A DNA stretch of 63,315 nucleotides, filler included, from Psammoneis japonica (GCA_008632985.1; 3 parts of 3 records of this genome joined end to end with filler, not necessarily neighbours in it), one strand, 5' to 3'; numbered from the whole stretch's first letter, positions 1-59,915 are shown. Program-made: numbers and translations. Notes: generated by a model not told the origin, from the sequence alone.

Positions 1-1542
1 GGGGAGCATGAAGACGCCACTGCCAAAATGTTGGCTGCCACCTGCTCTGCCATTGACGAAGACCTCATTGCCACCACTCGACTTGCAGGAGCTCAGCACA
101 CACAGGACAGGCAATGCCTGTGTGATCTCTTGAAGAAGCCAGTGACAGGGGGGGGCGGGTGGGCTTTTGTCAAACCTTCCAATCACAACCACAATGGTCG
201 CACTGCCTTCTTTGCACTCAAGAGGCAGGCGGAAGGTCGGCTGCTGCCACCACCCAAAAAAACGTGCCTGTGCACAGATTGCTGCCGCAAAGTGCACCGG
301 ATGGGGTTGTTTTACTTTCGACCAGCATGCTCAACGCCATCAGAAAGCTCACAACGACTTGCCCAAGCTTGATGAGCCGGCAGCCGAGACCAAGAAGGTC
401 TCTGACTTTCTCAAGGGTGTCTCGGACCCTGGGTTGGAGACTGGCAAGAGTGCAGTGGATGGAGACCCAACAAAGCCAGTGGATTTCGAAGCATGCCAGC
501 AGCGTGTGAAGACTCTGGCAGAAAATGCTGAGAACCGCAACGCTGATGCTTGCGGAATCACACCCGTCCAACGCCGCAACAACTGGTGCAGAAACCCTGG
601 ATGCAAGCACCAACCAAAAAAGGACAAGCCCAGGATCAGGGCAGGCCACTGTCCCATTGAAGAGTGGAGTGCTCTTGATGGTCCTGGGCAAGAGCAAGTC
701 AAGAAGCTCTGTGAGGCCAAAAAAGTCAAGAAGAAATGCAAAGCAGCAGCTGCATCTTCAGAGGCTGAGTCGGTTGATGTCGAAACTTGCGATGTTAAAA
801 AGGTGGCTGTTGCCGAGCCTGAACCCAAACCTGCTGATGAACAAAAGGACTCCAAAGAGTTGGGCAAACCTGCTGCCAACGCAGGCAAGCAGCTCAGACG
901 CAGTGCCCACAAGAAACCTCAGAAAGAGGCATGAACAGCTGCTCCAGCACCAAAAAGCACAGAGCCGACTGTTGCTGAACCTGCTGGCACTGTGCATTTG
1001 TCTGGGCAATTCTCAAAGGATGTGTGTCTCTTTGTCATCTGCTGGACATTCAGATGGTGAAGCAACCAATGACTTGGACTCGCGTGCTGATGCGTGTGCT
1101 GTTGGGTCCAATTTTGCAATGCACTCTGACATCGACAAGCACTGTCATGGTGCACCCTTGCTCCGAAGAGCGCGCGCCAATGAAAAACATTCCCATTTGC
1201 ACGGCTGCTGCTGTGTGGGTTGATCCAACTGATGGACAACCACACCTGCTGTCAGTCCATGAGGCCATGTGTTTTGGGGACAGGATGACTGACACTCTGC
1301 TGTGCCCCAACCAACTGCAAGCAAATGGACTGACTGCCCATGACACCCCTCGCCAGTTTGATTCTAACAGCACACACTCTGTTGCTTTCCCTGACTCGAA
1401 GATCAGGGTGCCATTGCACATGCGAGGTGTTGCTTCAGTTTTTGACTCACACAAGCCGACAAAGGAGGATCTGGAGAACCTTCCCCAGCTGGAACTCACA
1501 TCACCCCTGAGATGGGAGCCTTCTGCTGATGCCATGGCGCAC
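1..1542 (+). pseudogene. copia gag C-terminal part and aspartic protease (mutated)
   Basis: gag-like KKVSDFLKGVSDPGLE; protease DLDS(H>R)AD(T>A)C; TLLCPNQLQANG..HDTPRQFD..LTSPLRWEP typical of diatom copia pol. Confidence 0.85.
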
Positions 1543-4085
1543 TGAATGCAAACCAAAACGCGGCTCCCACAAAAAGAAAAAAGAAGTCATGACACGAGGA
1601 CAGCCAATTGGCTGCCTTTGCATTGTTGGCAATGATCGATTCTCGCGCAATTCCATGCATTCCTTGTGGCCACAATTCTGCCTTTGTTTCATGGCTGCAC
1701 CCTCTGCGTGTTTTTCCGCACGCGCTCCTTTGCCAACATGCCATTGTTCCATGATCAGCGACAATCTCATGCAGTGGAAAACGAATTGCGTCCATTTTCA
1801 AATGGCTGATCTCCCAATCTCTCAACTGCTCTCTGTCCACACCTGCCAAGCTCCAAAGACCCCCCCCTCTGCCTGCTGTCCTTTTAAGTTCTCTGCTTCA
1901 TGCAGCGAACACCCTTCCATCTTTGCTGCTTCCAGAAGTGTGAATTCGAGATCAACTCGGCTTGATTTGGATCTTTGCCTGTTGCCAATGCTTCCTGCCA
2001 AGTTCCTGTGCAAGACTCAGCACAAGTTCTACGTGTCATAAAGACATTTTCTGATGGCCTGTTTTCCGGTCATCCAACGGCTCTCCATCTGCACCTGCCT
2101 AGCTCCAATGACCCCCCCTTTCCTCAGTGCCTTTTCAAGTTCTTTGCTCTGTGTGGTGAACTCCTTTTTGTTGTTGCTGCCACCAGAAGTTTGACTTTGA
2201 GACCAACTCGGTGGTTGGTGATGTTTTGGTCCCTGTTTGTGAAATTTGCGGTGTTTGCTCTGTTTCAGATCCCTTCTCACTTTGGAATGTTCCAGCACGG
2301 CTTGCTTCAGTGGAATGATCAGATCCAGCCAGAAGCAAAGAGCCACTCCATTGCTGTGGTTTCAAGTGCTTTGAAGGTGCCAAATCAATTTGCTGTTGCT
2401 GTCACAATTCTGCCTTTGTTTCACGGCCATGCCCTCTGCGTGGTTTTCTGCGCAAGCTCTGGTGCAGATGTTGCCTTTTTCTGACGGTGCAATGACGGCT
2501 CTCACCTGCCTGTTCAGACGTGTTCCTTTGTCGACATGCCATTGTTCTGTGATCATTGACAATCTTGTGCAGTGGAGAACGAATTGCACCCAGCTCTCTT
2601 GGCTCAATCGCTCAACGTTTTTCTCGGTGTTTTTTGTTCTCGCGTGCAAAGTTTCCACACAGGTCTCAGTGCAAATTCTACGTGTTTTGCAAGTCATTTC
2701 AGATGGACAACTCGTCAAATTGCCGATTGCTCTCTCTCCATGCCTCTCAAGCATCAACGACCCCCCTTCTCTCTGTTGTCTGTTCAAGTTTCCTGTGTTG
2801 TGTGGCGAACATCTTCCTGTCGTTGTTCCTTTCAGAAGTTTGAAGAAGAGACCAATTCAGTGTGCATTGGCCAATCTTCCGCGTGCCGACAAGTCCACAC
2901 AAGTTTCAGTGCAAGTTCTGCGTGTCAAGGAAATGTTTTAAAACGGCCGATCTCCCAATCACTCGACTGCTCTCCATCCACAACTGCCAAGCTCCAAAGA
3001 CCCCCCCTCCACCTGCTGTCCTTTCAAGTTCTCTGCTTCATGCAGTGAACACCCTTCCATCTTTGCTGCTTCCAGAAGTGTGAATTTGAGATCAACTCGG
3101 CTTGATTTGGCTTTTTGCCTTTTTGCCGATGCTTCCTGCCAAGTTCCTACGCGAGACTCAGCACAAGTTCTGCGTGTCATGAAAACATTTTCTGACGGCC
3201 TGTTTTCCGATCATCCGACGGCTCTCCATCCATGCCTGCCAAGCTCCAGTGACTCCCCCTTTCCTCAGTGCCTTTTTGAGTTCTTTGCTCCATGTCATGA
3301 ACTCCTTTTTGTTGTTGCTGCTGCCAGAGGTTTGACTTTGAGACCAACTCGGTGGCTGGTGATGTTTTGGTCCCTGTTTGTGAAATTTACGGTGTTTGCT
3401 CTGTTTCAGATCCCTTCTCACTTTGGAGTGTTCCAACATGGCTTGCTTCAGTGGAATGATCAGATCCAGTCAGAAGCAAAGAGCCACTCCATTGCTGTGG
3501 TTTCAAGTGCTTTGAAGGTGCCAAATCAATTTGCCGTTGCTGTCTGTGACACTGCTCCCAGCTGTTCCCGGTGGGCGTCATCATTTGTTGGTGACGCCCA
3601 TCTTGGCTGGTCGCCATGCATTCCTGCCGCGCTGTTGGTGCGCTGGGGGTGTGGGTCAGCTTGTTGCCAGAGTTGCAGGAATTTTGGTTTTGTTTTTAAT
3701 TTGCTGTTGCTGTCTGTGACACCACTCCCAACTGTTCCTGGCGGGCATCATCATTTGTTGGTGACACCCATCTTGGCCAATCGCAATGCACTCCTGCCAC
3801 ACTGTTGGTGCGCTGGGGGTGTGGGTTGGCTTGTTGCCGGAGTTGCAGGGTGGAAGTGCAGCAGCACCACAAATGCAGAATTTTGGTTTTGATGCCATGG
3901 CGCAAAAGGAGGAAGCGCACGCATGTGCCAGTGAGCACAAGAACACACCCGGGCATGCTGCAAAGCACGTGCTTCAAGTGTGGAGGAGGAGATGCATTTG
4001 CAAAATTGCCTCTTTTTCTGTTGGCGATCATTCACATGTTCATTGCCCAATGATTTTGCTGCAGAGCTTGCACGCAGAATTCTGC
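1543..4085. repeat. Nested insertion of an unidentified degenerate repeat built from ~240-250-bp subunits, an ~1.14-kb duplication and a 170-bp tandem duplication
   Basis: Breaks copia between protease and integrase. 1790-2400 matches 2930-3540; subunit anchors near 2660/2900/3153; 3541-3710 matches 3711-3890. Right boundary approximate. Confidence 0.75.
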
Positions 4086-4089
4086 GGGC

Positions 4090-7000
4090 CCAATGTCACA
4101 AAAAGTCCCATCTGGGGCTGGAACCCATCTGAGGGAGACGGGCTGCATGACCGGTGCAACCCAGACATCCACCTGGATTGTGCCAAGCGGAAATGGGTGC
4201 ATGCACTGTTGACCTCAAGTCGTGCATCAACCATCACACCCGAGATGCTCTCCAAGAGGTGGAACATTGGTTTGACGGCCACCAAGAACACCCTCAGAGT
4301 GACGACCCAGGCAGGGGTCTGCAATGTCTGCGTGCCATCCGAGCAGAAAGTCTGGAAGAAAGCCCTGTGGCTTGAGTTCCCTGCTGTCAAGAGACACTTC
4401 TGCTCTGACCAGATGTTTTCGAAGGTCAGGTCAATGCATGGCAAGATGGGAGGAAGCGCATTTGCCAACAGAAGAGGGCATGACAAGCTCCATCCTTGGA
4501 AGAGAAACAGGACCACCCAAATGCCATCATGTCATTTGTGCATGGCGTTGGCATTCTGCAAGTCCTTGTGTTGGATGGCACACCGGAAATGGCAGAAGGC
4601 CAGACCAAGGAGATTTGCAAGGAATGCACCAGGAGGTGTCCACCCCGCACAGCCCCTGGCAGAACCTGGCCGAGGCATCCATCCATGAGTTGAAGAAGAG
4701 AGTCCGAGTGACTCTGCGCCGGACTGGCGCTCACAGGTGACTTTGGTCCCACAGTGCCAAATGGACATGTGATGTCCAACGCATGATTGCGACTGCCAGC
4801 ACATCGGACATGGGAGGACGAGTCCCAGAAGAAGAGGTGACAGGTTCAACACCTGACATTTCATCGCTCTCTCTCTTTGATTGGTGTCAACCTGTCTGCT
4901 GTCACATGCCTGTGGCAGAGTTCCAACACATTGAGAAGTGCATTGGCTTTTGGCTTGGAGCAGCCGACAACTGCAACTGCACTGACGACATGGCATTTGT
5001 CATCCTGCCCGAATCAGGCAGACCCATCATTCGGAAAGATGTGTGGGCCATGCCGGAGGATGACCTTAAAACTCCGGCGATCAAAACGGATCTTGCGTCA
5101 GTCAATCAGGCCTTGATCGAATGACTTGACATCCCGGAACAGGGCGCCAATGCTGACTTCCCTGAACTCCCTGATGACTTCATGGACGAATGGGGCAATG
5201 CTGTCAAACCCATGGAACCCGATGCTTCCAAACCAGAAGCTGATGAGCACACCCTGGAGGGGCCAGATGAACACCTCACAGCTCAAGTCATGTCACCACG
5301 TGGAGGCCAGCTGACTCATGCTGGGGTCATTGCATGCAAATGAGATGATGACGGGGTTCCCATTGGCACTGGGAATGACAACCCTGTCCCAGACTCGAGG
5401 ACACACGATGTGGAGTTTCCTGATGGATCCACTGATTCCTGTGCCACTGATGCAATTGCAAAGAACCTGTTCACTCAGATGGACTCTGAAGGGAATGACT
5501 GCCAGATCATGAAGGATGCAGTCGATCACCGATGTGATGCCCGTGCCGCAACGGCTGATGATGGGTGCATGACAACTGAGACTGGCAGGCACGCTCCTGG
5601 GAGGATGACCGCAGGCTGGGACCTGCAAGTCAAATGAAAGGACGGGACTGCATCCTGGGTTCCCCTCAAGGATTTGAAGGAATCTGACCCAGTCGAGGTT
5701 GCTGAGTGCGCTGCAGCAAACAAGGCAGCTGGTGAACCATCTTTTAACTGGTGGGTCCGAGACGTCTTGCATCACAGGTCAAGGATCCTGAAGAAAGTCA
5801 AGTCGCGTTGCTGGAAACGCGCGCACAAGTTCAGAGCTGAGCTCCCAAAATCTGTTGAGGAAGCTGTGGAGACAGACAACAGAGTGGGGGCTGACTTTTG
5901 GTTCAAGGCCATTGAGAAGGAAATGCGCAACGTCATGCATGTGTTCGAATTCTGTGATGATGACACTGCACCGGTCGGGCACAATCACATTGATTGTCAC
6001 ATGATCTTTGACATCAAGAGCACCCTCCAACGCAAAGCAAGGTTTGTGGCCGGAGGCCATCAAACCGATCCACCCAAGGAATTGACTTGTTCCAGTGTGG
6101 CATCACATGACAGCGCTGGGACAGCATTCACTGCAGCAGCTCTGAATGACCTGGAGGTCCTGAGTGCTGACGTTCAGAGTGCCCACTTGAACGCACACAC
6201 TGAGGAGAAGTGTTGCACTGCTGCTGGCTTGGAATTTGGGAAGCACAATGAAGGAAGGCCGGCAATTGTTGTCTGAGCCTTGTGTGGTCTCAAGTCTTCA
6301 GGTGCAAGATTCAGGGAACACATGGCAGCCACCTTGCATGACGCTGGGTTCGAGTCTTGCAAGGCTGACCCGGACATCTGGATGTGAGCTGCGGTCAAGC
6401 CAGGTGGCTTCAAGCACTGGGAACATGTGCTTGTGTGCATGGATGACTTGTTGTGCATCTCCCATGAACCTCAGAAGGTCGTGGATCATGTGAGCTCCAG
6501 GCACGGGCTCAAGGACGGAAGTGTCTGCGAGCCAGAAGAGTGCTTGGGTGCCCAGATCAGAAAGTGCCAGTTGTCTGACTTGGATGGCAAGCCGCGCTGG
6601 GCCATGTCCTCTGACCTTTGTGTCAAAAGGGCATTGGCCAATGTTGAGTTGGAGCTCAAGAAAACTGGCGGGCCTTCCAACAAAGGCGTTGATGCCCTTG
6701 AGCTCAGGGCATGGGCCTGAGCTGGATGGCTCACCTGAGTTGAGTGCCAAAATGGCCAACTGCTGCCAAGGTTTTGTTGGTGTGCTGCGATGGACAGTTG
6801 AGCTGAGGCAACTGGACATTTTTGTTGCTTCCTCACTCATGTCCTCCTGCTTGGCAGCACCACAAGTTCAACACCTGGGCAAGGTGCTCCATGTCTTTGC
6901 GTGCTTGAAGGCTCGCTCCAAGTCTGCGCCAGTGTTCGACGATGCTGAGCCGGTCTTTGACGAGAGCAGTTTTGCCAAGTGCAACTGGGGAGAACATTGT

Positions 7001-7570
7001 CCTGGTGCGGCTGAACCAATTCCGCTGAACATGCCAGAAGCACGTGGGAACAGCCTGGTGCGGCTGAACCAATTCCGCCGAACATGCCAGAAGCACGTGG
7101 GAACAGCATGACTGCTGCTTGCTTTGTTGGCGCTGATCATGCCAGATGCTGTGTGACGTGCAGGCCCCACACTGGGATCCTGACATTCAACAACGAGCTC
7201 CCATCTTGTGTTGCTCTGAGTGGCAGAATGCCATGGAATCATCCACTTTTGGGTCAGAGTTCATGGCAATGAAGACTGCAGTGGAGCAAATTGAAGCCTT
7301 GCATTGCAAGCTGCGGATGCTGGGAATCCCCATGGATGGAGCCACTGATGTCGTCTGTGACAATGAAGCTGTCTTCAAGAACTCAACTGAGCCGGAGTCT
7401 GCTTTGAAGAAGAAGCACAGTGTGATTGCCTGTCACAGGACTCATGAGGCACAAGCCGCTGGAACAGCACGCATTGCTTGGAAAGACGGGTGCACGAATT
7501 TGGCGGACATGCCAACCAAGTTTGTTGCCTGGGCTGAAGCTCCCGGAAATTGCAAGCGATGTCCTGTGGC
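4090..7570 (+). pseudogene. copia integrase, reverse transcriptase and RNase H (mutated)
   Basis: IN, RT and RH motifs in order across several frames; RT catalytic motif reads EHVLVCMDD at 6421-6447. Confidence 0.92.
7001..7106 (+). repeat. 53-bp tandem duplication inside copia RT/RH, also present in copy B (15131-15236)
   Basis: cctggtgcggctgaaccaattccgc(t/c)gaacatgccagaagcacgtgggaacag x2. Confidence 0.95.
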
Positions 7571-7714
7571 AAGCCCCAAAATGGGGCAAACAGAATGGGT
7601 TTGCTGTGCATGTGCGGCTTTTCTCATCCCCAAATGAAAATGATGCCCTGGAGCAGGGCAGCATCAGGTTGCACTTGTCTGTCAATCTGGCCCAAGTGGA
7701 GCCAGCATCAGTTC

Positions 7715-16037: not shown

Positions 16038-16893
16038 ATCGCAAAGGCCAAAAAATCACAAAGGGCACAAAATGGCCAAGGGTGCAAAATCACAAAGGGT
16101 GCAAAATCACAAAGGGCGCAAAATGGCGGAAAAGGGTGCAAAATCACAAAGGGCGCAAAATGGCCAAGGGCACAAAATCACAAAGGGTGCACAGTCACAA
16201 AGGGTGCAAAATGGCAGCAAAGGGTGCAAAATCACAAAGGGTGCAAAATGGCAGCAAAGGGTGCAAAATCACACAGGGTGCAAAATGGCCAAGGGCGCAA
16301 AATCACAAAGGGTGCAAAATGGCCAAGGGTGCAAAATCACAGAGGGTGCAAAATCACAAAGGGTGCAAAATGGTGGCAAAGGGTGCAAAATCACAAAGGG
16401 TGCAAAATCGCAAAGGGTGCAAAATCACAAAGGGAGCAAAATGGCCAAGGGCGCACAATCACAAAGGGCGCAAAATGGCAGCAAAGGGTGCAAAATCACA
16501 AAGGGTGCAAAATGGCGGCAAAGGGTGCAAAATCACAAAGGGTGCAAAATGGCCAAGGGTGCAAAATCACAAAGGGCGGAAAATGGCAGCAAAGGGCTCA
16601 AAATCACAAAGGGTGCAAAATGGCCAAGGGTGCAAAATCACAAAGGGTGCAAAATCACAAAGGGTGCAAAATGGCGGCAAAGGGTGCAAAATCACAAAGG
16701 GTGCAAAATCGCAAAGGGTGCAAAATCACAAAGGGAGCAAAATGACCAAGGGCACAAAATCACAAAGGGAGCAAAATGGCCAAGGGCACAAAAGGGACAA
16801 GGGCACAAAATCACAAAGGGTGCAAAATTGCAATGGGTGCAAAATGGCGGCAAAGGGTGCAAAATCACAAATGGCACAAAATGACCAAGGGCT
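16038..16893 (+). repeat. Satellite array, second large block
   Basis: Same units; opens with the same aatcgcaaaggccaaaaaatcac junction as 7907. Confidence 0.97.
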
Positions 16894-21993: not shown

Positions 21994-22093
21994 NNNNNNN
22001 NNNNNNNNNNNNNNNNNNNNNNNNNNNNNNNNNNNNNTTAATTAATTAANNNNNNNNNNNNNNNNNNNNNNNNNNNNNNNNNNNNNNNNNNNN
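21994..22093. other. Artificial 100-bp scaffold gap/linker
   Basis: N run with central TTAATTAATTAA (stops in all frames); identical linker at 42676. Confidence 0.97.
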
Positions 22094-22734: not shown

Positions 22735-23598
22735 TTACTTTTCGTGGCCAATCTTGCCCGTCTCCGCCCAATCACTTTCGTCAAAGGCATCGCTGTAATT
22801 CTTCTGAATCACTTCTTCGTCGAGAGAAGCATGTGGTTCTTGCGTAATGGGAATAGTGTGCTTCGGGGGACTTTCAGGTTCACTCTTGGGAGCCTTAAGC
22901 ACGAGAATGCCCTTGTCAAAGTTGGCAGTGATATTTTCGGGATCAACATTGACACCAATCGAAAAGCGTTTGTCAAACCGCATCTCCGATACGACCCGTC
23001 CATCTTCTTCTTCTGTCTTTTGATTTCCAGAGATATGAAGAAGTGTTCCGTCGTTTTCAAGCTCGACCGTGAGATTTGAAGCGTCTAACCCCTCTGGGAC
23101 AGTGACGGAGATCTCGTACTTGCCATGATCTTCTTTGATCTCATAACCCGGCGAAGCTCGCAATAGCGTCATGGCGGGCTTGTCCATGAACGGAGAGTCG
23201 CGAAAGGCGGGCATGATATCCGTAAAGGGAAACTCACGATGCGAAAAGAAGGGTGCAAATGGATCTCGATCGAAGAAATCATCGAATCCACGAAACAAGG
23301 GACGAAAGATCGGACCATTGTATCGAACACTACTGGGAGCCCTCGTCCCGAGCCTATCGCGCACGTTGGAACCACCAACAGGTTCCTTCTTTCCGACTTC
23401 TATAGAATCACTCTCATCAAAAGCATCCGAGTACGCCTTTTGAAAGATGCTGTCATCCCGACGTTTTGGGTTGGTCGACAACAAGCGTTCTGGAATGTGT
23501 CCTGAAAGTACCGCTGCTGCAGGTCGTCCCAACGCTGTCGTAAACACCGTGGAGGGAGAGCGAGTTGATAGGTTGTAAAGACCCGAGCGAATCATCAT
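22735..23598 (-). CDS. HSP20: Small heat-shock protein (HSP20/alpha-crystallin domain), possible mitochondrial presequence
   Basis: YEIKEDHGKYEISVTVPEG..LHISG..FDKRFSI..ITANFDKGILVLKAPK..IPI; R/S-rich N-terminus. Confidence 0.9.
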   Translation of the reverse strand: MMIRSGLYNLSTRSPSTVFTTALGRPAAAVLSGHIPERLLSTNPKRRDDSIFQKAYSDAFDESDSIEVGKKEPVGGSNVRDRLGTRAPSSVRYNGPIFRPLFRGFDDFFDRDPFAPFFSHREFPFTDIMPAFRDSPFMDKPAMTLLRASPGYEIKEDHGKYEISVTVPEGLDASNLTVELENDGTLLHISGNQKTEEEDGRVVSEMRFDKRFSIGVNVDPENITANFDKGILVLKAPKSEPESPPKHTIPITQEPHASLDEEVIQKNYSDAFDESDWAETGKIGHEK

Positions 23599-24059
23599 GG
23601 TGGAAATGTTGATGTATGTCGAAAGCTTTCTTCTGAACTATGAGAAGGCGAGTCTGGAGAGCGAGCTTCACCGCAGTTCGCTTCGCACGTGTCACGACTG
23701 AGAATTCGAAAGAAATCGAAATCTAACAGTGATGGACGGTGGGCACTCTATTCTTTCTTTCGAGATCGGAATAGCCGCAACTCGAGAAAAGTCTCATGGC
23801 TCTTTCAAAGTAAGCTAGCACCACGTGTTGCCATGGTCACTACTTACGTCTGTGAGGCCGAAACGGAGAAGAGTCGCATGTCTCATGCTGTGTTGTTTGA
23901 CATCATGGTGGGAAAATCCAAAAATCCAGGAGAAACGATCATTCTATCTACGGATTGATGATTCCGGATTCCTGTTCCATCACCGCAGCGAACAGCGCGT
24001 GGAATTTGCTCCCAACAACCACAAACTGAATCCTCATTGACACCCTCAAGCATTCTTAC

Positions 24060-27000
24060 ACAACTGTCACCATGGGCGACAACAGTGGCTGTGTGCTCCA
24101 CAGTTGCTGTTAAGGGCTGATGTTGGCAGAGATCCAAAACAAACGACAGAGGCTGAGTGTGTGTCCTCTGGCGCACACTCGTGTTTTTTTTTTTCAACAG
24201 CACAGCAGCAAGACACACCACATGCATGTGCTGCTGCTGCCACCCAAGAACCCAGCACAGTGAGAAGCTCAGAGTGATGAATTGAAACCCAGATGGCCCA
24301 GCTGAGCCACAGAGAATCAACACAAAGCATTCTTCCTGGCCCCTGCAGCACCATCTCCTCGGCGCGGCACAAAACCCAGCAGAGCTCAGTGGCTCAGCAT
24401 GATGTGGGCTCCTGGCACAAAAATTCAACCATTGCATGTGCCACGCACCATGCCACGACACACACAGTCTGTTTCCACAAGTGCAGCTCCTTTTGCATGT
24501 GAGGATGCAACAAATTGTTTGCAAGAAATCCCCTGTTGTTGCTTTGTTGTTGTTTGCTGTGCACACTGGGCCACACACACAATGCAGCACACTCTCCTGC
24601 TTTTGCATGCACTTTGTCAGGAGGGAGATTCCATTGTCTTCCATCACACACCACTGCCATGTCAAAGGAGTGGCAATGACAACTGACAAACACAGCTCCA
24701 TGATGATTGTGCTCAGCCTCCCCATCCTCAATGTGCCTCTTGCTTGCGCCATTGGCCCTCTCCACAAAAAACCAAAAAAGTGCCGACTGAAGAGCCAGCA
24801 TGTTGCCAAATGGGTGGGGACTGCTTGTGCCCTTGAACACTGCATGGGGTTGCCCACATCATCCAAATCATTTTGAACAATCAACTCTTCCATTGGAGTT
24901 GTTGGGGTGCCGGCATCACGCATCACCCTCGCTCTTCTTGTGATTTCCTCCACTGCTGCTGCTGCTGCCTGCCACTCTTGACCCCCATCCTTTGTTGTCA
25001 GAGCTGTTTTTGTCAAAGAGCTGCCCTTGTTGCTCTTGTCTGGGCAGCATGCTCTGACACCCTGACTGAATTCCAAAATGTGCTCCTTGTGTTTCTGAGG
25101 TTGCTTGCCATCTGTCCATGGCACTCCCACTCACATCTTTGTGGGCAGACCCAACAACACCTCCTGGCACACCTCAGCTGGGCATTTTCCATGCTTCTGC
25201 ACTTGAAATGTTTGCCAACAACTTGCTGGGCTTTGTTGTCACACAGAAAAATGAGATTGACTGCACCCTGCTTTGTGCATCTTTTTTGGACCCACCTTTT
25301 TCAACCCAACAGTTTGGCTTGCAAAGTCTGGAAGCAGAAACCACTTTCAGGGAGGCACTGCCTGACGTGCACTGGAGGGCACTTGTTGAATTTGAAAAAA
25401 GCCAGGGCCTCTTGGCCACCATTGTCCCAGCACTGGCACAATTTTCTTGTGATGCTCTGCATTCTGCAGATGTCTTCTTGTTTTGCACATTTGCACATGG
25501 GCCTGGCTTGGATTGAGAAAGACACACAACAGCAAACATGAGAGTTGCCCCAATCAAATTTGCTGCCATCATTGCATTCCAAGAGAGTGAGTGTGCCAAT
25601 TTTCAAACACTTTGCCAGAGAACCAGAAATGCATGTTGCTTGCTCACAGCACCGCAAGAACAGCCTTGTGGTGTTGGCAAATGGGTGGGGCAGACACCTG
25701 ACATGGTGGTGTTCTTTGATCAAATTTTGGAACAGAGGGCAAGTCTCTGGCACTGAGTGGCAATCTGAAATCAAGGGTGGTGTGGCACAGCCTTCAATGT
25801 TGACAAAGTTCAATGAATGACAGCACAAGAATTTTGTGAGAGTGCATTCACATGAAGTGTCATGACACATTGTGCACAAAATCAGTCATTTGTGCAATGA
25901 GCATGCATGAGCAACAACCACCAGTTGTTTTTGGAAAGATCATCATGCCAGGTTGCATTTAGCCTCAGCTGTTGGGACTCAAAAAACATCTGACAGACTC
26001 ACCTTGATTGGGCACTGAAAATGCACACATTTGGAACTTTTCCTGGCAAGACACCAGTGCCTCCTCTTCCAACAAGATCAGCCAGTGCACCTCAACTGGG
26101 TGGCACCCATGCCTGCACGTTTGCTTTCGGAACCTTGGGCAACACAAAAAGCACCCACCCTTCTTCCTTCTTCCAGAACTTCTCTTCATTGAGCATCAGG
26201 AGGCACTTGCTGTTTTTCCAGTGGCAGCCCCCCTTTTTTATTTGCACTTGACCTCTCAGAGCAACAAGAGTGCACCCCTTGAAGCTGGCCCTTTTGGTTC
26301 AGGAAAAAGACAATCTGAAATTTCCAGAAGAAGCCACCTGACAGTCAACAAGCTCCAAACACAGTGTTGGACAAATCTCTCATGTTTTTCCTTGCTGAGC
26401 ACATGATCCTCATCCTTTTTAAGTGTGCACTTCTTCTTTCCTTGTTTGTTGGACATTTTTCAAGTGCTTTTGCTGCTGGGGCAAAGCAGCACATGCCAGA
26501 AAGATTGAAGACAAAGGCATGGCATCACATGGAGCAGCAGGACAAGAAGAAGCCCAGCCAAGGCAACTTCATGGGGTGCAAATCTCCTTGGTGGTTTCCA
26601 CACCTGCTCTGACTTTTGCAAGCTGTCAATGACTTGTTTCACCCTCCATTGGAAAAGCAGCAGGCACCCTTGACAATGGCTTGAGGTGTGGGAGCTGGTG
26701 TTTTGACATCTTCAGCAGGGCAAGAAGTTGCCCACTTAAGATTGCTTTAGACACAATCTCCTTGGTGGTTTCCATGCCTGCTTTGACTTTTGCAAACTGT
26801 CAGCAAGTTGCATTTTCCATTGGAGAAACAGAGCAGGTGCCCTTGCCAATGGCTTGAGGTGATGTGGGAGCTGGAGCTTTTTGCCTTTGATGTCTTCAGC
26901 AGGTGGCGGGGCATGTGGGAAGTTGTGAATTTTCTGGCAAAAGGCTTTCTCCACCTTGCCAGTGCCAGCAACCCCCTGTCTCAGATTGTGACAACAGCTT

Positions 27001-27945
27001 TGTCAGGGGCTGAATTTGGGGTTGCCAAAGGACATCAGTCTTTTCATCAGTGCGCATTTGATGCCAAAATGCTCCAACAGACATTTTGGGCTGTCACCAC
27101 ATGACCGCTGCACAAGGAGGCACAGGCACAAGAAATGACTCTTGGGTGTGGCAAGCCCCACCAGCCATCGGAGTGAGCTTTTCATCCAAACATTTTGTCT
27201 CATCACCCCACATCAGAGTGGGGAATGATTCATCCGGGGGGCAATCGAATGATTTGGTCTGCCGTTGATTTTTAATTTGGAGCTCGGCCGCATTGTGATG
27301 AATGAAGCAAGACACCCACATGCTCAATTTTTAATTTGGTTCCTTCATTGACAATGTGGGTCAATCATGGACAATTCTGCTGCTGTTTCATTTTGCGCTC
27401 ACCCTCCCCCAATGCATTGGTGTTTTCTGCTCTTCATTTTTAATGCACCCCTTTGATCGGAGGTTCCATTTGTTTTCAATTTTCTGTCACACACCCACTG
27501 GAGTTGGAGAAGTCCTTCTCTGACCTGCCCAAATGTTTTGAATGCTTTGGGAATGAGCTCACACCAGCTGGCTTCACTGGAGCAGAGGACAGAGAGACAC
27601 CACTGGACTGTTTTGGTCAGATTTGTGTGTCGGGATGATTGCAGAAAGTTCCAACTCCTTTGAAAACACTCATTTTTGCACTTTGACTTCTTTTTTTCAA
27701 AGCAACATGGCAGGAATCTGTGCAGCAGACCCCCTTGCAAAAACACGTGATTTGAGCACTTGCCATCCAGACCAACAAACGTGCCACAGCACTCTAAAGG
27801 GGGCACTCATCTCAAGATGCAACAGAAACACACCCAGGGTGATGGCAACAAGCTCCAGGCACCTGACTCATTGGTGTGACATGGAGTGAGACGCAGTGCA
27901 GGAGAGGGCATTGGTGCAGCACAGGAGCATGAGAGGGTGTTGGCG
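24060..27945. mobile_element. Intergenic ~3.9-kb repeat relic, strongly TpA- and CpG-depleted, family unidentified
   Basis: Abrupt compositional change; ORFs almost Tyr-free and Cys/His-rich; ~174-bp degenerate duplication at 26581/26755. Confidence 0.65.
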
Positions 27946-28299
27946 GTAGAGCAGTGCAGCCATCTAACAGAAAGTTCCTGTGCCTTCGAAAACCCCATTA
28001 TTGCACTTTATGATTCCTTCGTTTCGAAGCAGTGCGGCCACGCGAATCGATGCAGCAACAGGCTCCGCTGCATGCCTGCTTGGAGCAAGCGACATTAGGA
28101 CCGGCCCACGTGCCACAGTAGAGCGAATTACAATCTTCTGAAGTCACTTCGCGACATCCATGGAAGAAGCAACATGCACCCTATGGACTCGGCGCACCGG
28201 CAGGATTTGGAGAGATTGCCGTTTCATCTTGACTCGAACAGCAAGTTGTAGCCCTACCATGCAGTGAACTACAGTGAACTAGAGTATGGTTCTTTAATT

Positions 28300-29727
28300 C
28301 TACATTATCCTGCAGTTCTCGTAGTTGCTCTTCGTTGGTTCCAGTGCATCAATGCTTGCGTGGTACGAAGCAGTAAAGTGGTCAGACACCATGCGTTCGT
28401 CCATCTCGATCAGTCGCAACACGGACGACATTCCGTTCGTCATGGAGCTTCCAATGAGCAGGTTTTTCTTTCTTTCTTCCTCTGAAGCTTTGTCACCATT
28501 CTCCTTCTTGGCCTGATCCTTCCAGTTTTCATACAACACCATGACTCTGCCTGGAATACAAAGATTGTCCGAGCAATCCACCTTGACTTCCGCTTGCGCA
28601 GCTAGAATCACTTCGCGTGCTTCGTCTGCCGACATTAACATGTCGGATTGATCCGTGGTGAGCCTCTTAAAGACAGACACGAAGCTTCCAAAACTGTCCT
28701 GGCGATTGATTATTTTCTTCTCTTCCATTTTGTCATGAACCTTTCCGAGACACTCCACGAGAACTTCCAAATTACCCATGCTACAACGAGGAATCACGTC
28801 CGAGTTGTTTACAATGGTTCGTGTCCATGGAGCACACGCCAGAGCAGACTGGCTGTCCATTACGGGAGGTGATGCGAATGCAATTACATTCAAACGGCCC
28901 TGCACCTGCAGGGCTGGAACACGCGAACGAAGTATGGGCGCCACCAAACAGGCGGCTCCGGCCCCAAGGCTATGGCCACATATGAGTATTTTATACTCAA
29001 GCGGAGCAAACAAGTGTTCCATCCACGGCTGAAGAATATCTGCAAGTGCAACCGAGCTCTTGAGTATGCCTTCGTGACAATGCATCTCCGTCTTACCGTT
29101 CTCGACAAAGGGTCGGTCGAGCTTGTGAGTCACCGAGAGGGCGCATACATCCGTCATGAGATCTTCAAAATTGGAGCTACCCTTGATACCAACAAGCGCT
29201 CTCTTTTCGTCTGAATTAATGGCAATATAGTGACCTACATATCCAACCTCTTTCTTTAAATCGTGGTGCAACAACGTGTACTTCTCACTCGCTAAATGCT
29301 CCTTGAGGACTGACGTTTCGACATCATAAGCCCAGTCTGAAAAGTTTAATGCCCTTTTCAACCCCTCAGCATCTGTATTGTCGTGATGGGAATGGATAGT
29401 TAGTACGCTATGGTAGTCAATTCGGTCTCACTGTCGCTTTTATCAGCGCGTTCAGAGACCTATGCTCAACCTACCTTTTGACGTTGCCGAAGGCCCCGCG
29501 TTCATGAATGCATTGTCACGAACCTCAGCTTCCATTTCTTTGATTTGACCGATAAGCTGAATATATGCCAAGAGCGACAGATGCAACTTTTTCTTTTGTT
29601 CCTCGTCGGGCGTCCTCGATTTCATCTTGGCATCCGCAACCTCCAAAAGTTTCTTCAGCTTGTCGCCGAGAACCTTGATGTCGGAGAGAGACTCATCCTT
29701 GTCTGGCTCTTCATTGAGACCAGGCAT
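28300..29727 (-). CDS. Class-3 lipase (alpha/beta hydrolase); exons 29727-29475 and 29372-28300
   Basis: GIKGSSNFED, CHEGIL, GHSLGAG nucleophile motif, FASPP, DVIPR, SDH; GT-AG intron 29474-29373 keeps frame. Confidence 0.88.
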
Positions 29728-30136
29728 TCTTATCTCGAACTATGAATGGCTCTAAGAACGCTGTTACTTCTCGGAACTTATCCTTTGTTGGCTTTGAAAA
29801 CACAACGTTCAGTAACAAGCACAACAACAAGAAGTGCTCTTCTGCAACCAATGCCAGAAAAAAAATTGCGATCTTCGCGCGTCCTTCCGTCGCCGGTGCA
29901 CGATTCTTCTGCCGATTTTGTCTCGTCCGACTAAAAATCATCAATGACGTCAGCACGATCTTCCCTTCGATCGTCCGTCGTCCGTATGGCAGCAACTTTT
30001 TCTGTTTTCATTTTTTCGAAGACGCCATGGCTGCGGAGTGAGGAACTATCATATTCATTGATTGTCTGTTTAAGTTAGCCACCCTCTTTATGCTGATCAC
30101 AATAAGGGATAGCTAGATTGGAATCTCTTGACAGAA

Positions 30137-32899
30137 ATGCAGTCTTCAAGTTCGTTGAGCAGCGTTGATGGAGATGATATATTCCAAAACGTGCCGCCGC
30201 CACCACCTCCTCCATCTCGGGATACAGATGCTCCAAGAACGCAAATCAGTAGCTTGGACTTTGAACGGGTTGTGAATGAATACTCGATTCAAGCGACACG
30301 AGACCGTCTACTAATCTCTCCAGAAGAACAACAGGTCGACTATAAGAATGGATACGGTACTATTTCGTCAAGAGAAACAGAAGATGATCTTGTTTGGAAG
30401 AAGCGACCAAAAACAAACATTCTTGGATACACTGGGAGAACTGCAACTCGCTGGGCCTTGTCGGCCTTGGCGGGTTTAATGACTGGTTTGACTGCGATTC
30501 TCATTGTCAGCGCTTCAGAAGAATTGATTTCATTACGAATCTATCAACTCAATGTTATGGCGAAGGATCGGAATTTCTCCAACGTGAAAGAGTATGTTCT
30601 TTTTGCAGTCATTAACTTGGTACTGGCCTTGGTCTCATGCCTGCTATGTGTCGGATGGGTTCCGGAAGGAGCTGGTTCGGGTATACCTGAAGTCAAGGCT
30701 TACTTGAACGGAGTGCGAGTCAAACGCTTTTCGAGTCTCCCTCTCTTTATCGTCAAAATTGTCGGAACAGTTCTAAGTGTATCGTCTTCATTGGCGATTG
30801 GCATGGAGGGTCCTCTTGTACACATTGGAGCCATTGTCGGTGCCATGTGTACAAAGATATCTGGAATCTTGTCACGACTCCTCACAAGAGGACCACAGTG
30901 CAGAGCTACTTCCTCTTGTTGCCTTCGGGAACGTTGGCTGCACAGTTTATGGGCTTGGACAACGACGGACTTGTCTCATTTTGCCACAGATGCCGAACGA
31001 CGAGATCTCGTAAGCATTGGAGCATCTTGTGGTTTTGCCGCATCCTTTGGAGCGCCCATTGGAGGATTGTTGTTTGTTCTCGATGACATTTCAAGCTACT
31101 TTTCCAAAAACATGTTTCTCAGAACGTTGGTCGCCAATGCAATTGGCACGTTTTGTTTGGCGGTGCATCATGGTGATTTGTCGGACTACAGCGTTATCAA
31201 TTTGGGAACCTTTAGTTCACCTAACGGCAATATTTTCTTCAATCGCTTTGAAGAGGTTCCTCTCTACGTTTTGATTGGTATCATTGGAGGAGCCATGGGT
31301 GGCGTATTTTGCTATTGCTTTCGGTTCTTGAAAAAGCACATTTCGAGTCGGCAATTCCGTGGTGCCAAAGGAAAACTTGTGGAAGTGGCCATTCTAAGTC
31401 TTGTCACGTCTTCGCTCCTGTTTGGTCTGCCTTGCATGGGATGGCCGTGTAAGAACGTGGAGGGCAGCGAGATGCATATGGAGAGCGATATAACAAAACG
31501 CCAGTTCTTTTGCGAAGAGGGAGAAATCAATGAGCTGGCGTTTATCCTTTTGGGATCCCGCGATGTTGCCATTAAACGAATCTTGACCGATCCTTCTCAA
31601 TTTCAAATCAAGACGTTGATGACTGTTGGTATTCTTTTCTTCTTCTTGATGACGTTGACATTTGGAACGTGTTTGCCTTCTGGCGTCTTTATGCCCACGG
31701 TTCTAATCGGCGCATCGTTGGGTGGTGCCGCTGGGCTCTCTTTTCAAGACTTCATTGATCCCGAAATTACGCCGGCAACTTTCGCTTTACTGGGAGTGGC
31801 CGCGCTTCTCACAGGCGTGCAGCGTTCTACTGTCAGCCTTTGCGTCATACTGGTGGAAGGAACGGGTCAGATAAAAGTACTGATTCCTGTAATTATCACA
31901 GTCATTGTGGCACGATACGTCGCTCAGCTGATCCATGCGGAGGGAATCTATGAGACAGCCATGGAGCTTAAAGGATACCCATACCTAACGCACGAAGAGC
32001 AGAAACGTTATGACATTGTCCAAGTGCAGGACATAATGAGTGAGCCAGTGCGCACCATCGGCCCTACAGAGCGAGCTCAGAAGCTTGTACACTTGTTGAA
32101 CCACTCAACACACCATGGATTTCCCGTGGTTGACCCAAGTACCAACGCCTTTCTTGGTTTGATTCGTCGAGATCAAATTGCTGCCCTGCTTGAATGCGGC
32201 ATATTTGAATCACCCGACGACGACGAAACATCTAGCAGTGGTAGCATGCGTCCCAGCCCATCGTGGACTCCATCACCTGGAGTTGGCAAGAGCCCAATGA
32301 TGCATTGGGCATATCATATCAAGGACGACCGTTATGACTACGTCAGACGAGCCTCAGCCATCATGGAAGAGTCCGATGAATTTGACGACCATGCCTGGCT
32401 CCTTTCTATGCGCACCAACTTGGATTCATTGCCAGCTTTGAATGTAACCGGTATGGACGATTCTGAGTCGAAATTCTCCGTGATTGGCGACGACTCCCTC
32501 CCCCCTCTTCCAGCTGCAAATCTGCTTCAAGCAGTTCAGAGTAGGTCCACCAAAAATGTTCATGGAGGAAAAGCGTTGTCGCGCGGATCCTCTCGATCTT
32601 CTTCACACTCGGCACCCACAGGCTATGCCACTGTTGGCATCAACGACTCCGGCACTCTCGTTATCCCATGGCTTAATCCTGACTACCGCAGACATAGGGT
32701 TAACGTGTCGTCGGTAATGAATCGTGGCACGTACTGTGTAACAGAGTTTTGTCCTGTCTCCAAGGCGCATTCTCTTTTTGCTTTGCTCGGATTGCGACAT
32801 GCCGTTGTCCTTGGCCCATCAGGCACAGTTGTTGGAATACTGACGCGGGCTAACTTTCAGAGTGGTCACATTCGGAAACGCACTGGCATGGAAGTTTAA
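30137..32899 (+). CDS. CLC-family chloride channel/transporter with two CBS domains (CLC-6/7-like)
   Basis: GSGIPE, GMEGP, FGAPIGG, GVFMP, GIYE, HHGFPVV, LGLRH..VVGILTR. Confidence 0.95.
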   Translation: MQSSSSLSSVDGDDIFQNVPPPPPPPSRDTDAPRTQISSLDFERVVNEYSIQATRDRLLISPEEQQVDYKNGYGTISSRETEDDLVWKKRPKTNILGYTGRTATRWALSALAGLMTGLTAILIVSASEELISLRIYQLNVMAKDRNFSNVKEYVLFAVINLVLALVSCLLCVGWVPEGAGSGIPEVKAYLNGVRVKRFSSLPLFIVKIVGTVLSVSSSLAIGMEGPLVHIGAIVGAMCTKISGILSRLLTRGPQCRATSSCCLRERWLHSLWAWTTTDLSHFATDAERRDLVSIGASCGFAASFGAPIGGLLFVLDDISSYFSKNMFLRTLVANAIGTFCLAVHHGDLSDYSVINLGTFSSPNGNIFFNRFEEVPLYVLIGIIGGAMGGVFCYCFRFLKKHISSRQFRGAKGKLVEVAILSLVTSSLLFGLPCMGWPCKNVEGSEMHMESDITKRQFFCEEGEINELAFILLGSRDVAIKRILTDPSQFQIKTLMTVGILFFFLMTLTFGTCLPSGVFMPTVLIGASLGGAAGLSFQDFIDPEITPATFALLGVAALLTGVQRSTVSLCVILVEGTGQIKVLIPVIITVIVARYVAQLIHAEGIYETAMELKGYPYLTHEEQKRYDIVQVQDIMSEPVRTIGPTERAQKLVHLLNHSTHHGFPVVDPSTNAFLGLIRRDQIAALLECGIFESPDDDETSSSGSMRPSPSWTPSPGVGKSPMMHWAYHIKDDRYDYVRRASAIMEESDEFDDHAWLLSMRTNLDSLPALNVTGMDDSESKFSVIGDDSLPPLPAANLLQAVQSRSTKNVHGGKALSRGSSRSSSHSAPTGYATVGINDSGTLVIPWLNPDYRRHRVNVSSVMNRGTYCVTEFCPVSKAHSLFALLGLRHAVVLGPSGTVVGILTRANFQSGHIRKRTGMEV

Positions 32900-42675: not shown

Positions 42676-42775
42676 NNNNNNNNNNNNNNNNNNNNNNNNN
42701 NNNNNNNNNNNNNNNNNNNTTAATTAATTAANNNNNNNNNNNNNNNNNNNNNNNNNNNNNNNNNNNNNNNNNNNN
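42676..42775. other. Artificial 100-bp scaffold gap/linker
   Basis: N run with central TTAATTAATTAA. Confidence 0.97.
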
Positions 42776-59843: not shown

Positions 59844-59915
59844 TATCCGTTCTATTATATTCCACTCTGATCGATTCCGAATTACGATTGTATTAACCAA
59901 ACGACAGCGTTCACC

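Follow-up and report, generated by a model that had tools for sequence, protein, structure and literature searches.

A sharply bounded island of TpA and CpG loss between two intact genes of the diatom Psammoneis japonica

The DNA analyzed here is a stretch of 63,315 nucleotides (hereafter the window) from the diatom Psammoneis japonica (GCA_008632985.1), composed of contigs of a fragmentary assembly that are joined by artificial linkers. One of these contigs carries an island, nearly free of TA and poor in CG, that is enclosed by two protein-coding genes. The features that define the locus are as follows:

22735..23637, minus strand: small heat-shock protein gene with an HSP20 domain, the unmutated left neighbour
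23999..28020, no strand: CpG-poor domain, offset by -113 / +73 bp from the TA-erased domain
24112..27946, no strand: TA-erased domain, defined by change-points, the dinucleotide table and the contexts of residual TA
28300..29427, minus strand: last large exon of a class-3 lipase gene with a Lipase_3 domain, the unmutated right neighbour

Both flanking genes retain normal TA and CG, in keeping with the original prediction that they are intact. Homologues of the lipase number 84, and all the named ones come from diatoms.

Observed/expected (O/E) counts of TA and CG confirmed the predicted TA-free, CpG-poor character of the island. The region 24060-27945 contains 10 TA (O/E 0.04) and 34 CG (O/E 0.15), together with an excess of CA (457, O/E 1.86) and TG (418, O/E 1.75); the corresponding O/E values in genic DNA (28001-50000) are 0.57 for TA, 0.98 for CG, 1.20 for CA and 1.22 for TG. 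At genic rates, which may not equal the ancestral composition of the island, about 220 CG would be expected in this region and about 149 TA in the TA-erased domain (24112-27946), where nine TA are found. Eight of these nine are in the Y-TA-R context and five of the eight are TTAA. Gaps between TA sites reach 1849 bp in the island but no more than 167 bp across 21.8 kb of genic sequence. AA (1.15), AC (1.02) and AG (1.06) show no depletion, with AT (0.78) and GA (0.98) a little under genic values, and the GC content is 0.49, as in the flanks. The sum of TA, CG, TG and CA amounts to 23.7% in the island versus 24.2-25.4% in genic DNA, and it remains constant at 23-25% across islands and genes.

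We located the edges as maximum-likelihood change-points with 2-log-likelihood support. On the left, the change-points are at 24112 for TA (support 24112-24188) and at 23999 for CG (23997-24033); on the right, they are at 27947 for TA (27878-27965) and at 28020 for CG (27875-28035). The edges are thus sharp, about 100 bp or less, and the predicted boundaries were borne out in both sharpness and position. The idea that the two losses share the same domains also holds, as the TA and CG change-points are 42-113 bp apart at all six real domain edges of the window (a seventh edge, 22039, was left out because it is an artificial contig linker). The ends of the domain lie about 400 bp upstream of where the heat-shock gene starts and, on the other side, some 350 bp downstream from the lipase stop; they probably represent limits of a chromatin or methylation domain. 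Contigs from a public sequencing run, X1 (31-letter words, depth 60-100), match the island exactly, and its pieces 25089-25693 and 25672-26277 show no differences to them at word depth >60; because X1, which comes from one sample, is possibly the source of the assembly, this agreement is not an independent confirmation. Another run, X2, leaves the island almost uncovered, and no RNA run is listed; neither bears on silence.

A relic of a mobile element elsewhere in the window served as a calibrator for the direction and the kinetics of the two losses:

1038..7598, plus strand: relic of a copia polyprotein, located on another contig of the window

The relic was compared with 62 full-length homologues over 534 conserved columns, 407 of which are retained. 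Not one of the 23 conserved Tyr residues is kept, 14 having become Cys (TGY) and nine His (CAY) (Fisher p=8.7e-16), whereas Arg CGN has turned into TGN or CAN at 18 of 28 conserved sites. TA loss is thus complete while CpG loss is partial, as had been proposed. A-to-G changes at codon position 1 follow a T in 12 of 15 cases, while none of the 79 kept A-initial codons does. Taken together with the conserved dinucleotide sum, the Tyr and Arg changes bear out the proposal that TA and CG converge on TG/CA. With all 23 Tyr accounted for and the Y-R sum conserved, the TA changes are almost exclusively A-to-G/T-to-C, as read from fixed differences rather than de novo mutations. For the island, the change appears to have run from TA to TG/CA, judging from mass balance, the copia relic of the other contig and one old duplication.

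The order of the two losses can be read from the surroundings of the relic as well. Region 1-22000 has a TA O/E of 0.02 but a CG O/E of 0.43, so the contrast described earlier for the copia element, nearly TpA-free and still retaining CpG, is real. It includes mutated duplicates (1-1794/11815-13573 and 1793-2701/13915-14822) which share TG/CA outcomes, and the two closest pairs show 27 CG-type differences versus four TA-type. The duplication copied already TA-free DNA, and CpG loss went on afterwards. The further suggestion that the CpG/TpA ratio could serve as a relative clock fails, because CpG and the sole unsaturated TA class (TTAA/YTAR) rank the domains in opposite order. Residual TA and CpG are not correlated (Spearman -0.08, p=0.55, 56 bins), and the number of CG per 500 bp varies between 1 and 26 while TA is at its floor everywhere. 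Even within the island, CpG retention is a mosaic, with 12 CG in the left shoulder (24112-24930), 16 in the right shoulder (26907-27946) and only a few between them:

24931..26906, no strand: CpG-poorest core, 4 CG in 1976 bp

To characterize the sequence preference of the TA loss, we compared surviving TA sites in 30.1 kb of domains with those in 24.7 kb of genic DNA. RTAY is absent from the domains (0 versus 295 genic), YTAY and RTAR together are rare (20 versus 488), and YTAR (33 versus 153) includes TTAA, which survives at about 41% (22 versus 44; odds ratio 14.4, p=3.8e-14). The products point the same way. Their excess is 27.8 per kb where A precedes Y (YTGY+RCAR) and 7.8 per kb in the opposite class, and the ratio of the product classes is 1.48-1.74 in four of four domains versus 1.10 in genes (252:168, p=0.004, for the 24-28 kb island). 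CpG-derived products are without such bias (12 versus 18). Among copia Tyr codons that follow Y, eight became TG and two CA. The TA process strongly prefers T-A-Y, a preference that is new here, and the order of preference would be T-A-Y > T-A-G > T-A-A. The base 5' of T was also considered as the determinant and rejected, because both the product classes and the outcomes at Tyr codons implicate the base on the 3' side of A.

The island and its margins contain several repeats and one long open frame:

23883..25130, minus strand: 415-codon open frame, a length reached in none of 500 dinucleotide shuffles
24040..24047, plus strand: left member of an inverted 8-mer, with its partner at 27933-27940
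24147..24671, plus strand: left arm of a possible direct repeat, weak and not established (49% identity)
26390..26892, plus strand: degenerate tandem repeat, about three units of ~176 bp
27004..27513, plus strand: right arm of the weak possible direct repeat (49% identity, not established)
27642..27889, plus strand: inner, mutated copy of a 248-bp unit
27968..28215, plus strand: outer, unmutated copy of the 248-bp unit, downstream of the lipase stop and with normal TA

A DNA-level alignment of two of the ~176-bp units shows 22 transitions and 12 transversions, among them three paired CA/TG sites; in purine/pyrimidine space, the repeat scores 117 versus 81 for the reversed-query control. The 248-bp copies are identical in 156 of 261 columns, and their local alignment scores 130.5 versus 31.2 +/- 3.8 (maximum 43.5) for shuffles. 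The 17 CG of the outer copy read TG (5), CA (4), CG (1) or something else (7) in the inner one, and only one of six outer-copy TA sites reads CA. This pair would most simply be the result of a local tandem duplication, and it suggests that mutation occurred in place and was limited to the domain, since the inner copy is mutated and the adjacent copy in the flank is not. The junction of the 248-bp units is no more than about 20-50 bp away from the right edge of the island, a position that also fits a block mutated before its arrival.

The remaining features are less informative. The direct repeat scores 77.5 versus 38.1 +/- 5.5 (maximum 64) for shuffles, and we rejected its reading as a long terminal repeat, as it is too weak and internal rather than terminal. 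As for the 415-codon frame, HMMER found no homologue among 1.84 billion representative proteins, and its purine periodicity, a transition-proof measure, is 0.048 (null p=0.19) versus 0.11-0.24 in seven real genes. With neither a homologue nor codon periodicity, the frame was not accepted as a gene relic. TA-erased DNA is almost without TAA and TAG stops and is therefore prone to long false open frames. CA and TG are finely intermixed in the island (runs z=-1.44), both strands being affected, and the CA/TG runs test for strand patches was not significant in any domain; thus, no statement on processivity can be made.

The homology of the island to a transposon could not be demonstrated by Pfam, protein or terminal-repeat searches. 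A Pfam search of 40 island frames gave no credible match (six matches with E 0.09-0.27, all under the cut-offs) and no reverse-transcriptase relic. Searches with tblastn, using the flanking proteins and all genic frames of at least 80 aa, produced nothing meaningful, and Rfam and tRNA scans detected no RNA or tRNA in the island. The six short arrays that a tandem-repeat finder reported have no evident significance. Inverted repeats were not found in the island, nor was a terminal inverted repeat in a transition-tolerant test (32.5 versus 29.4 +/- 3.9). The inverted 8-mer proposed to mark the element termini is indeed present, but its role as a terminus is not supported, since 6-46% of random window pairs, according to the window size used, contain such a pair by chance; its right member sits within a short local direct repeat. 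No second copy of the island exists in the window or in the indexed sequence set that we searched. Diverged X1 contigs do match portions of the core and of the right shoulder, at about 25118-25600, 26520-27724 and 27816-27922, and could be either paralogues or a divergent allele.

The closest known parallel comes from Bigelowiella natans. According to a recent preprint, mutation-accumulation lines of this alga display A-to-G hypermutation at TpA only, and integrated viral DNA is hypermutated from TpA to TpG or CpA (Mettrop et al., bioRxiv 10.64898/2026.01.13.699255). The same source describes TA-depleted, CA- and TG-enriched clusters genome-wide, an enrichment of reverse transcriptase and DDE domains among low-TpA coding sequences, and a mutation rate raised by orders of magnitude, with the process active in some lines but not in others; its authors propose an adenine deaminase, with ADAT2 candidates (bioRxiv 10.64898/2026.01.13.699255). 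The diatom island is alike in that the changes are almost only A-to-G/T-to-C and restricted to TpA, the neighbouring genes here being spared. However, B. natans is a chlorarachniophyte and thus a rhizarian, whereas the present host, a diatom, is a stramenopile. The erasure in the diatom is near total (TA O/E 0.02-0.10), compared with a rho of 0.45 reported for the B. natans viral insert, and it spans 48% of the window, including DNA without a recognisable mobile-element gene. Moreover, TA loss in the diatom is co-extensive with CpG loss and shows the preference of T-A-Y over T-A-R and the sparing of TTAA, while none of the words CpG, context, flanking, trinucleotide and TTAA appears in the text of the preprint; its supplementary mutation table may bear on the motif. 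The B. natans mutations were measured, whereas those of the diatom are seen only as fixed differences.

Repeat-induced point mutation (RIP), known from Neurospora and other ascomycetes, likewise produces dense transitions in repeated or unwanted DNA, with sharp limits and intact neighbouring genes. RIP is accompanied by cytosine methylation of the mutated DNA. Its chemistry, C-to-T at CpA yielding TpA and a lower GC content, is opposite to what we observe, since in the island TpA is destroyed and GC is unchanged. RIP is triggered by duplication and mutates both copies, which is also at odds with the 248-bp pair, of which only the inner copy is mutated, although the copies are now only 60% identical and the duplication is undated. 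As one copy is untouched, homology alone does not trigger the diatom process. Diatoms nevertheless carry DNMT4 enzymes related to fungal RID, and methylation of repeats is described in Phaeodactylum (both PMC9998398). In Cyclotella cryptica, repeats are reported as CpG-methylated blocks beside unmethylated genes (PMC5124317). The decay of CpG in methylated repeats resembles our case in the CpG deficit and TG/CA excess of blocks abutting CpG-normal genes, and the hypermethylated regions described for diatoms have a similar size, kilobases to tens of kilobases. Such decay accounts for the CpG half only and cannot remove TpA. For the TpA half, DNA editors derived from TadA are of interest, which according to the published description prefer YAC inherently and have been engineered to a YAY > YAR hierarchy (PMC12528748). 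The diatom changes, here read from sequence alone, share with enzymes of the TadA/ADAT type the A-to-G direction, the 5' pyrimidine and the preference for 3' Y over R. These enzymes, however, are engineered or act on tRNA, and in the diatom the 5' base is strictly T rather than any pyrimidine. Apart from the B. natans preprint, our literature search yielded no report of the TA-loss signature or of RIP in diatoms.

Starting from the composition and edges of the island, the direction and order of the two changes and the T-A-Y preference, all of which are observed, we consider it likely that the island represents intergenic DNA, partly repeated and silenced, without a recognisable mobile-element gene, and that it was rewritten in place by two domain-confined transition processes. 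One would convert TpA to TpG or CpA, changing A:T to G:C at the A of T-A in either of the two strands. This process would favour T-A-Y and would have reached saturation, so that mostly poor substrates are left (Y-TA-R, above all TTAA); it may be enzymatic DNA adenine deamination by a TadA/ADAT-like enzyme. The other would be ordinary decay of CpG to TpG/CpA, slower and patchy, most likely through deamination of 5-methylcytosine, by analogy with the CpG-methylated repeats of other diatoms. Mutation probably took place at the present locus and not before the arrival of the DNA.

It might be argued that the block acquired its mutations at another site and reached this intergenic space by movement or duplication, its sharp edges being rearrangement breakpoints. 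Mutated DNA does duplicate, as the copia-region pairs that differ mainly at CpG demonstrate; the right edges (27947-28020) adjoin the junction of the inner and outer units (27967/27968), and diverged relatives of parts of the island are present in the same sample. Yet the last 248-bp unit of the island is homologous to the DNA right beside it, local tandem duplication being the simplest account; paired TG/CA differences to the diverged relatives (25413/4, 25423/4 and 27418/9) imply independent changes after the copies separated; and all six real edges in the window behave alike. We therefore regard this scenario as rather unlikely. An artefact of sequencing or assembly, or foreign DNA that never had TA or CG, seems scarcely credible. 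The assembly is fragmentary, with its contigs artificially linked, and the only run containing the stretch is a single sample that may be its source; but exact 31-letter-word contigs at the depth found require accurate reads, and unmutated genes abut mutated DNA within one contig. Natively TA-free DNA is incompatible with the Tyr-to-Cys/His changes of copia and with a copy of host flank that carries the mutations.

If an ADAR-type enzyme edited repeat transcripts that were then reverse-transcribed and inserted back into the genome, A-to-G changes with a 5' U/T preference would result, but the 3' preference of ADAR is for G, whereas here it is Y > G > A. Moreover, both strands are affected and finely intermixed, no reverse-transcriptase relic was found in the island, a copy of the local flank was mutated in place, and the TA edges coincide with CpG edges. 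Thus, even with the preference of ADAR for an upstream U, noted in the B. natans preprint (bioRxiv 10.64898/2026.01.13.699255), this route is very improbable. Finally, a single mutator could have acted on both self-complementary Y-R steps, TA and CG, turning them into TG/CA without methylation-driven CpG decay as a process of its own. Common edges and common products would suit it; we find it improbable all the same, because the kinetics differ (TA is at its floor, CG is variable), CpG loss outlasted TA loss, CpG products lack the flank bias seen in TA products, and the preprint reports hypermutation only at TpA.

The usual mutation bias is from GC to AT, and a process directed at A:T runs against it. 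Such a process has been documented so far in one 2026 preprint only, on an unrelated alga. Its saturation in the diatom, with edges of about 100 bp shared with CpG decay, suggests widespread editing in marine algae linked to genome defence or heterochromatin. The T-A-Y preference and the sparing of TTAA constitute a testable enzyme fingerprint and a simple screen for other genomes, and they also allow published mutation-accumulation data to be re-read. There are consequences for annotation as well: proteins predicted from TA-erased DNA are systematically altered from Tyr to Cys/His, and standard repeat and domain searches miss such DNA. Tentatively, and with rather more against the idea than for it, we propose that diatoms may possess a chromatin-guided DNA adenine deaminase which reads T-A-Y and erases TpA on silenced, CpG-methylated domains, with TTAA escaping. 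If true, this would be a natural double-strand-wide A-to-G editor with its own motif. It would also be an old means of genome defence in the SAR lineage, given that measurements in a rhizarian alga have revealed the same TpA signature.

Scanned in 500-bp bins, the window switches back and forth between DNA of two kinds. In normal DNA the TA observed/expected ratio (O/E) is ~0.5-0.7 and that of CG ~1.0. In the other kind TA is nearly absent, CG is low and TG/CA are strongly up at the same GC content. DNA of this second kind forms four TA-poor domains, together 30,650 of the 63,315 bases.

TA-poor domains of the window
1-22000: TA O/E 0.023, CG 0.43 (the first contig, bearing a copia relic)
24101-27900: TA O/E 0.040, CG 0.14 (the island)
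50251-52650: TA O/E 0.059, CG 0.27
57751-60200: TA O/E 0.095, CG 0.34

Genes of normal composition
22735-23637, minus strand: HSP20 gene, left neighbour of the island
28300-29427, minus strand: class-3 lipase gene, right neighbour of the island

Further ordinary, unmutated genes
30113-32899: CLC chloride channel with CBS domain
56376-57428: Peptidase_M64-like
60503-61150: ubiquitin-conjugating enzyme
61544-63314: PEPCK (ATP), spanning two frames, presumably two exons

Between 24060 and 27945 the island holds 10 TA (O/E 0.04) and 34 CG (O/E 0.15), where genic rates would give 149 and 220, together with 457 CA (O/E 1.86) and 418 TG (O/E 1.75). The corresponding O/E values in genic DNA (28001-50000) are 0.57 for TA, 0.98 for CG, 1.20 for CA and 1.22 for TG. 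The longest gap without TA measures 1849 bp in the island; in genic DNA, of which 21.8 kb were covered, it is 167 bp. By likelihood change-points, TA depletion runs from 24112 (support 24112-24188) to 27947 (27878-27965) and CG depletion from 23999 (23997-24033) to 28020 (27875-28035). The O/E values and change-points bear out the original prediction of a TA-free, CG-poor, bounded island, and the normal TA and CG composition of the HSP20 and lipase genes agrees with its statement that both neighbours are intact. Also as predicted, the copia-bearing domain keeps more CpG than the island (CG O/E 0.43 vs 0.14), with TA near nil in both.

Of 84 homologues of the lipase, six are labelled with an organism, in every case a diatom, and the best reaches 47% identity, which makes the host a diatom without a close relative in that database. 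Since these homologues are 500-650 aa long, the lipase gene of the window has more exons upstream. A contig of run X2 omits 102 bases within this gene (29372-29475), with GT..AG ends on the minus strand. The gap looks like a spliced intron, and X2, labelled 'DNA?', may be RNA-derived.

TA and CG depletion occupy common domains, as had been proposed: at the six real edges, their change-points are separated by only 113, 73, 60, 46, 47 and 42 bp (6/6). An apparent edge at 22039 was left out of this count, as it falls in one of the artificial linkers (21994-22093 and 42676-42775), each made of two 44-N runs flanking a 12-base six-frame stop spacer. Because the window consists of three contigs joined by such linkers, adjacency of the copia-bearing first domain to the heat-shock gene is not established. 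Elsewhere, a 391-bp gap without TA in normal DNA (53444-53835; 500-bp bin TA O/E 0.17, CG 0.53) may be a very small mutated patch.

TA, CG, TG and CA together make up 23.7% of the island, 24.2% of 1-21990 and 24.2-25.4% of genic DNA, the constancy expected if Y-R steps interconverted solely by transitions. The direction of change can be read from the copia relic, whose frame 5638-6276 has 505 protein matches (best E 7.8e-90, 69% identity); these are RVT_2 polyproteins, some from the diatom Fragilaria crotonensis. We aligned 62 full-length copia homologues to 1038-7598 and defined as conserved the 534 codons at which at least 30 homologues were aligned and at least 80% agreed. The relic retains the conserved residue at 407 of them. 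Conserved Tyr is kept at 0 of 23 codons, being replaced by Cys (TGY) at 14 and by His (CAY) at 9 (Fisher p=8.7e-16). At codon position 1, 12 of 15 A-to-G changes are preceded by T, as are 0 of the 79 retained A-initial codons. The 44 conserved Arg codons appear as CGN (10), AGG (9), TGN/CAN (18), GGG after T (3) or other (4). In this relic, all testable TA sites have thus become TG/CA, as have 18 of 28 CG sites, which upholds the predicted convergence of both dinucleotides on TG/CA.

The order of the two losses is recorded in two pairs of duplicates within the first contig, 1-1794/11815-13573 and 1793-2701/13915-14822, whose copies are 96-98% identical. Between the copies there are 27 CG-vs-TG/CA, 4 TA-vs-TG/CA and 1 CA-vs-TG differences. 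It follows that TA loss was essentially over before the duplication and CpG loss ran on after it, TA loss being the faster of the two. In an older pair of repeat units (2518-3544 and 13499-14524), 17 sites read CA in one unit and TG in the other, a sign of independent hits at one ancestral Y-R step. At a larger scale, 1-8809 and 11815-16883 form a segmental duplication of DNA that was TA-free beforehand (92-98% identity, differences mainly CpG). The TA-free first contig also carries 17-bp minisatellite arrays at 7906-9495 (~90 units) and 16037-16892 (~49 units), whose units differ at one CG/TG/CA position; these arrays record CpG decay in many copies.

This order had led to the proposal that the CpG/TpA ratio gives the relative age of a domain. 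The order stands, but the ratio is no dating tool. Counts of residual TA and CG in 56 bins of 500 bp do not correlate (Spearman -0.08, p=0.55), as TA has already reached its floor. Ranked by CpG and by the TA class that is not saturated, the domains fall in opposite orders, a comparison in which the ancestral composition of the domains may differ.

Densities per kb: first contig, three small domains
CG: 27.1, 10.0 (p=1.4e-21)
TTAA: 0.46, 1.46 (p=0.007)
Y-TA-R: 0.73, 2.07 (p=0.003)

The island itself is a mosaic, with 12, 4 and 16 CG in 24112-24930, 24931-26906 and 26907-27946, and the surviving TA in these parts (0, 5 and 4) trend opposite to CG. As TA and CpG are not lost in proportion, no single ratio can give the age of a domain.

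The TA left in the four domains (30.1 kb; n=53) occur in non-random contexts when compared with 24.7 kb of genic DNA (936 TA).

Contexts of TA: domains, genic DNA
TTAA: 22, 44
Y-TA-R (TTAA included): 33, 153
Y-TA-Y plus R-TA-R: 20, 488
R-TA-Y: 0, 295

TTAA accounts for 42% of surviving TA vs 4.7% in genic DNA (odds ratio 14.4, p=3.8e-14); of the 12 TA in the flagged interval, 9 are Y-TA-R and 6 are TTAA. The products point the same way. YTGY+RCAR, the products formed when an A followed by a pyrimidine changes, are in excess by 27.8 per kb in the domains, compared with 7.8 for the mirror class YCAY+RTGR; the matching losses in those flanks are 19.1 TA and 20.0 CG per kb. The first class outnumbers its mirror 1.50-, 1.50-, 1.74- and 1.48-fold in the respective domains vs 1.10-fold in genes (252:168 in the island, p=0.004). 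CpG-derived products from the duplicate pairs lack that bias (12 vs 18), so the asymmetry is a property of the TA process. The conserved Tyr codons are in line with this, though few (p=0.11-0.20): they gave TG 8 and CA 2 after a pyrimidine and 6 to 7 after a purine. In its simplest form, the rule makes the A of T-A-Y a good substrate, that of T-A-G poorer and that of T-A-A poorest. TTAA, being T-A-A on both strands, fits this rule by its survival at ~41% of genic density. The base 5' of T was also considered as the determinant and rejected, as it predicts the opposite product class. Overall, a saturating A:T-to-G:C change, specific to TA and favouring T-A-Y, has acted on both strands, and only within domains that also lose CpG.

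None of the 40 frames of the island has a credible Pfam match, no second copy occurs elsewhere in the window or in the sequence index of the scan, and no inverted repeats were found in it. A transition-tolerant test for terminal inverted repeats gave background level (32.5 vs 29.4 +/- 3.9). Thus, domains, repeats and copies demonstrate no transposon homology for the island. The inverted 8-mer suggested to mark element termini exists, but at chance level: random window pairs of 60, 120 and 200 bp contain one in 5.7%, 21% and 46% of cases, and its right copy lies in a short local direct repeat.

Features inside or overlapping the island
23883-25130, minus strand: 415-codon open frame, 3' end ~160-230 bp into the unmutated flank
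24147-24671 with 27004-27513: weak internal direct repeat (score 77.5 vs 38.1 +/- 5.5, max 64)
26390-26892: degenerate tandem repeat, ~176 bp

The open frame exceeds all 500 dinucleotide shuffles (mean 204, max 369 codons). A search of 1.84 billion proteins gave no homologue of it, and the purine periodicity seen in the real genes of the window is missing from it. Long frames are expected in such DNA, as the TA process removes TAA/TAG and rarely makes stops.

Read support comes from X1, one public run of a single sample and study, possibly the assembly's own data. It contains 96% of sampled words, and its word-based contigs span the whole tested stretch. Those at 25089-25693 and 25672-26277 match the island with 0 differences at word depths of 62.9 and 66.4, which requires accurate reads; the island is therefore not an artefact. 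One diverged contig of the run maps to about 25118-25600 (depth 37.8) and another, 933 nt long, to 26520-27202 plus 27487-27724 (96 differences, 27203-27486 absent). Several of the differences are paired TG-vs-CA at one dinucleotide (25413/4, 25423/4, 27418/9), and all X1 contigs on the 7.8-kb stretch together show 139 transitions and 92 transversions. By this mapping, parts of the island have relatives in that genome, either paralogues or a divergent allele.

At the right edge lie two homologous segments, 27642-27889 within the island and 27968-28215 in unmutated flanking DNA downstream of the lipase stop (score 130.5 vs 31.2 +/- 3.8, max 43.5). The 261 columns comprise 156 identities, 45 transitions, 34 transversions and 26 gaps. 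The 17 CG of the outer copy correspond in the inner copy to TG (5), CA (4), CG (1) or otherwise (7), and its 6 TA to CA (1), TA (1) or indeterminate states (4). The mutated domain ends close to where the two units meet. A chromatin boundary next to an active gene would fit this position; the main rival explanation, a block mutated before its arrival at this site, fits it too. Since adjoining copies had different fates, homology alone does not draw mutation. The diatom process differs in this respect from RIP, which is attracted by homology.

As to mechanism, a TadA/ADAT-like enzyme that deaminates DNA adenine to hypoxanthine could account for the TA half, and the CpG half most likely reflects deamination of 5-methylcytosine. 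TadA-derived DNA editors are described as having an inherent YAC preference, with YAY > YAR in an engineered variant (PMC12528748), which parallels the diatom order T-A-Y > T-A-G > T-A-A. In other diatoms methylation is reported to be mostly CpG and to cover repeat blocks as long as 30 kb next to gene-rich regions that are unmethylated (PMC5124317), and DNMT5a loss to abolish it in Phaeodactylum (PMC9998398).

A literature search for this signature, or for RIP, in diatoms returned no account of either. Among known systems the nearest is in Bigelowiella natans, where two integrated viral regions undergo TpA-restricted hypermutation and an ADAT2 homologue has been proposed as the cause. Of 231 new single-nucleotide mutations in these regions, 230 were A-to-G or T-to-C, and every one of the 230 fell on TpA, at ~6e-7 per site per generation (Mettrop et al., bioRxiv 10.64898/2026.01.13.699255). 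The diatom belongs to another supergroup lineage. Its erasure is near total, reaches DNA without recognisable mobile-element genes and is co-extensive with CpG loss. The 3' base preference, unmentioned in the main text of that preprint, is a feature of the diatom, and the T-A-Y target motif is a new finding here.
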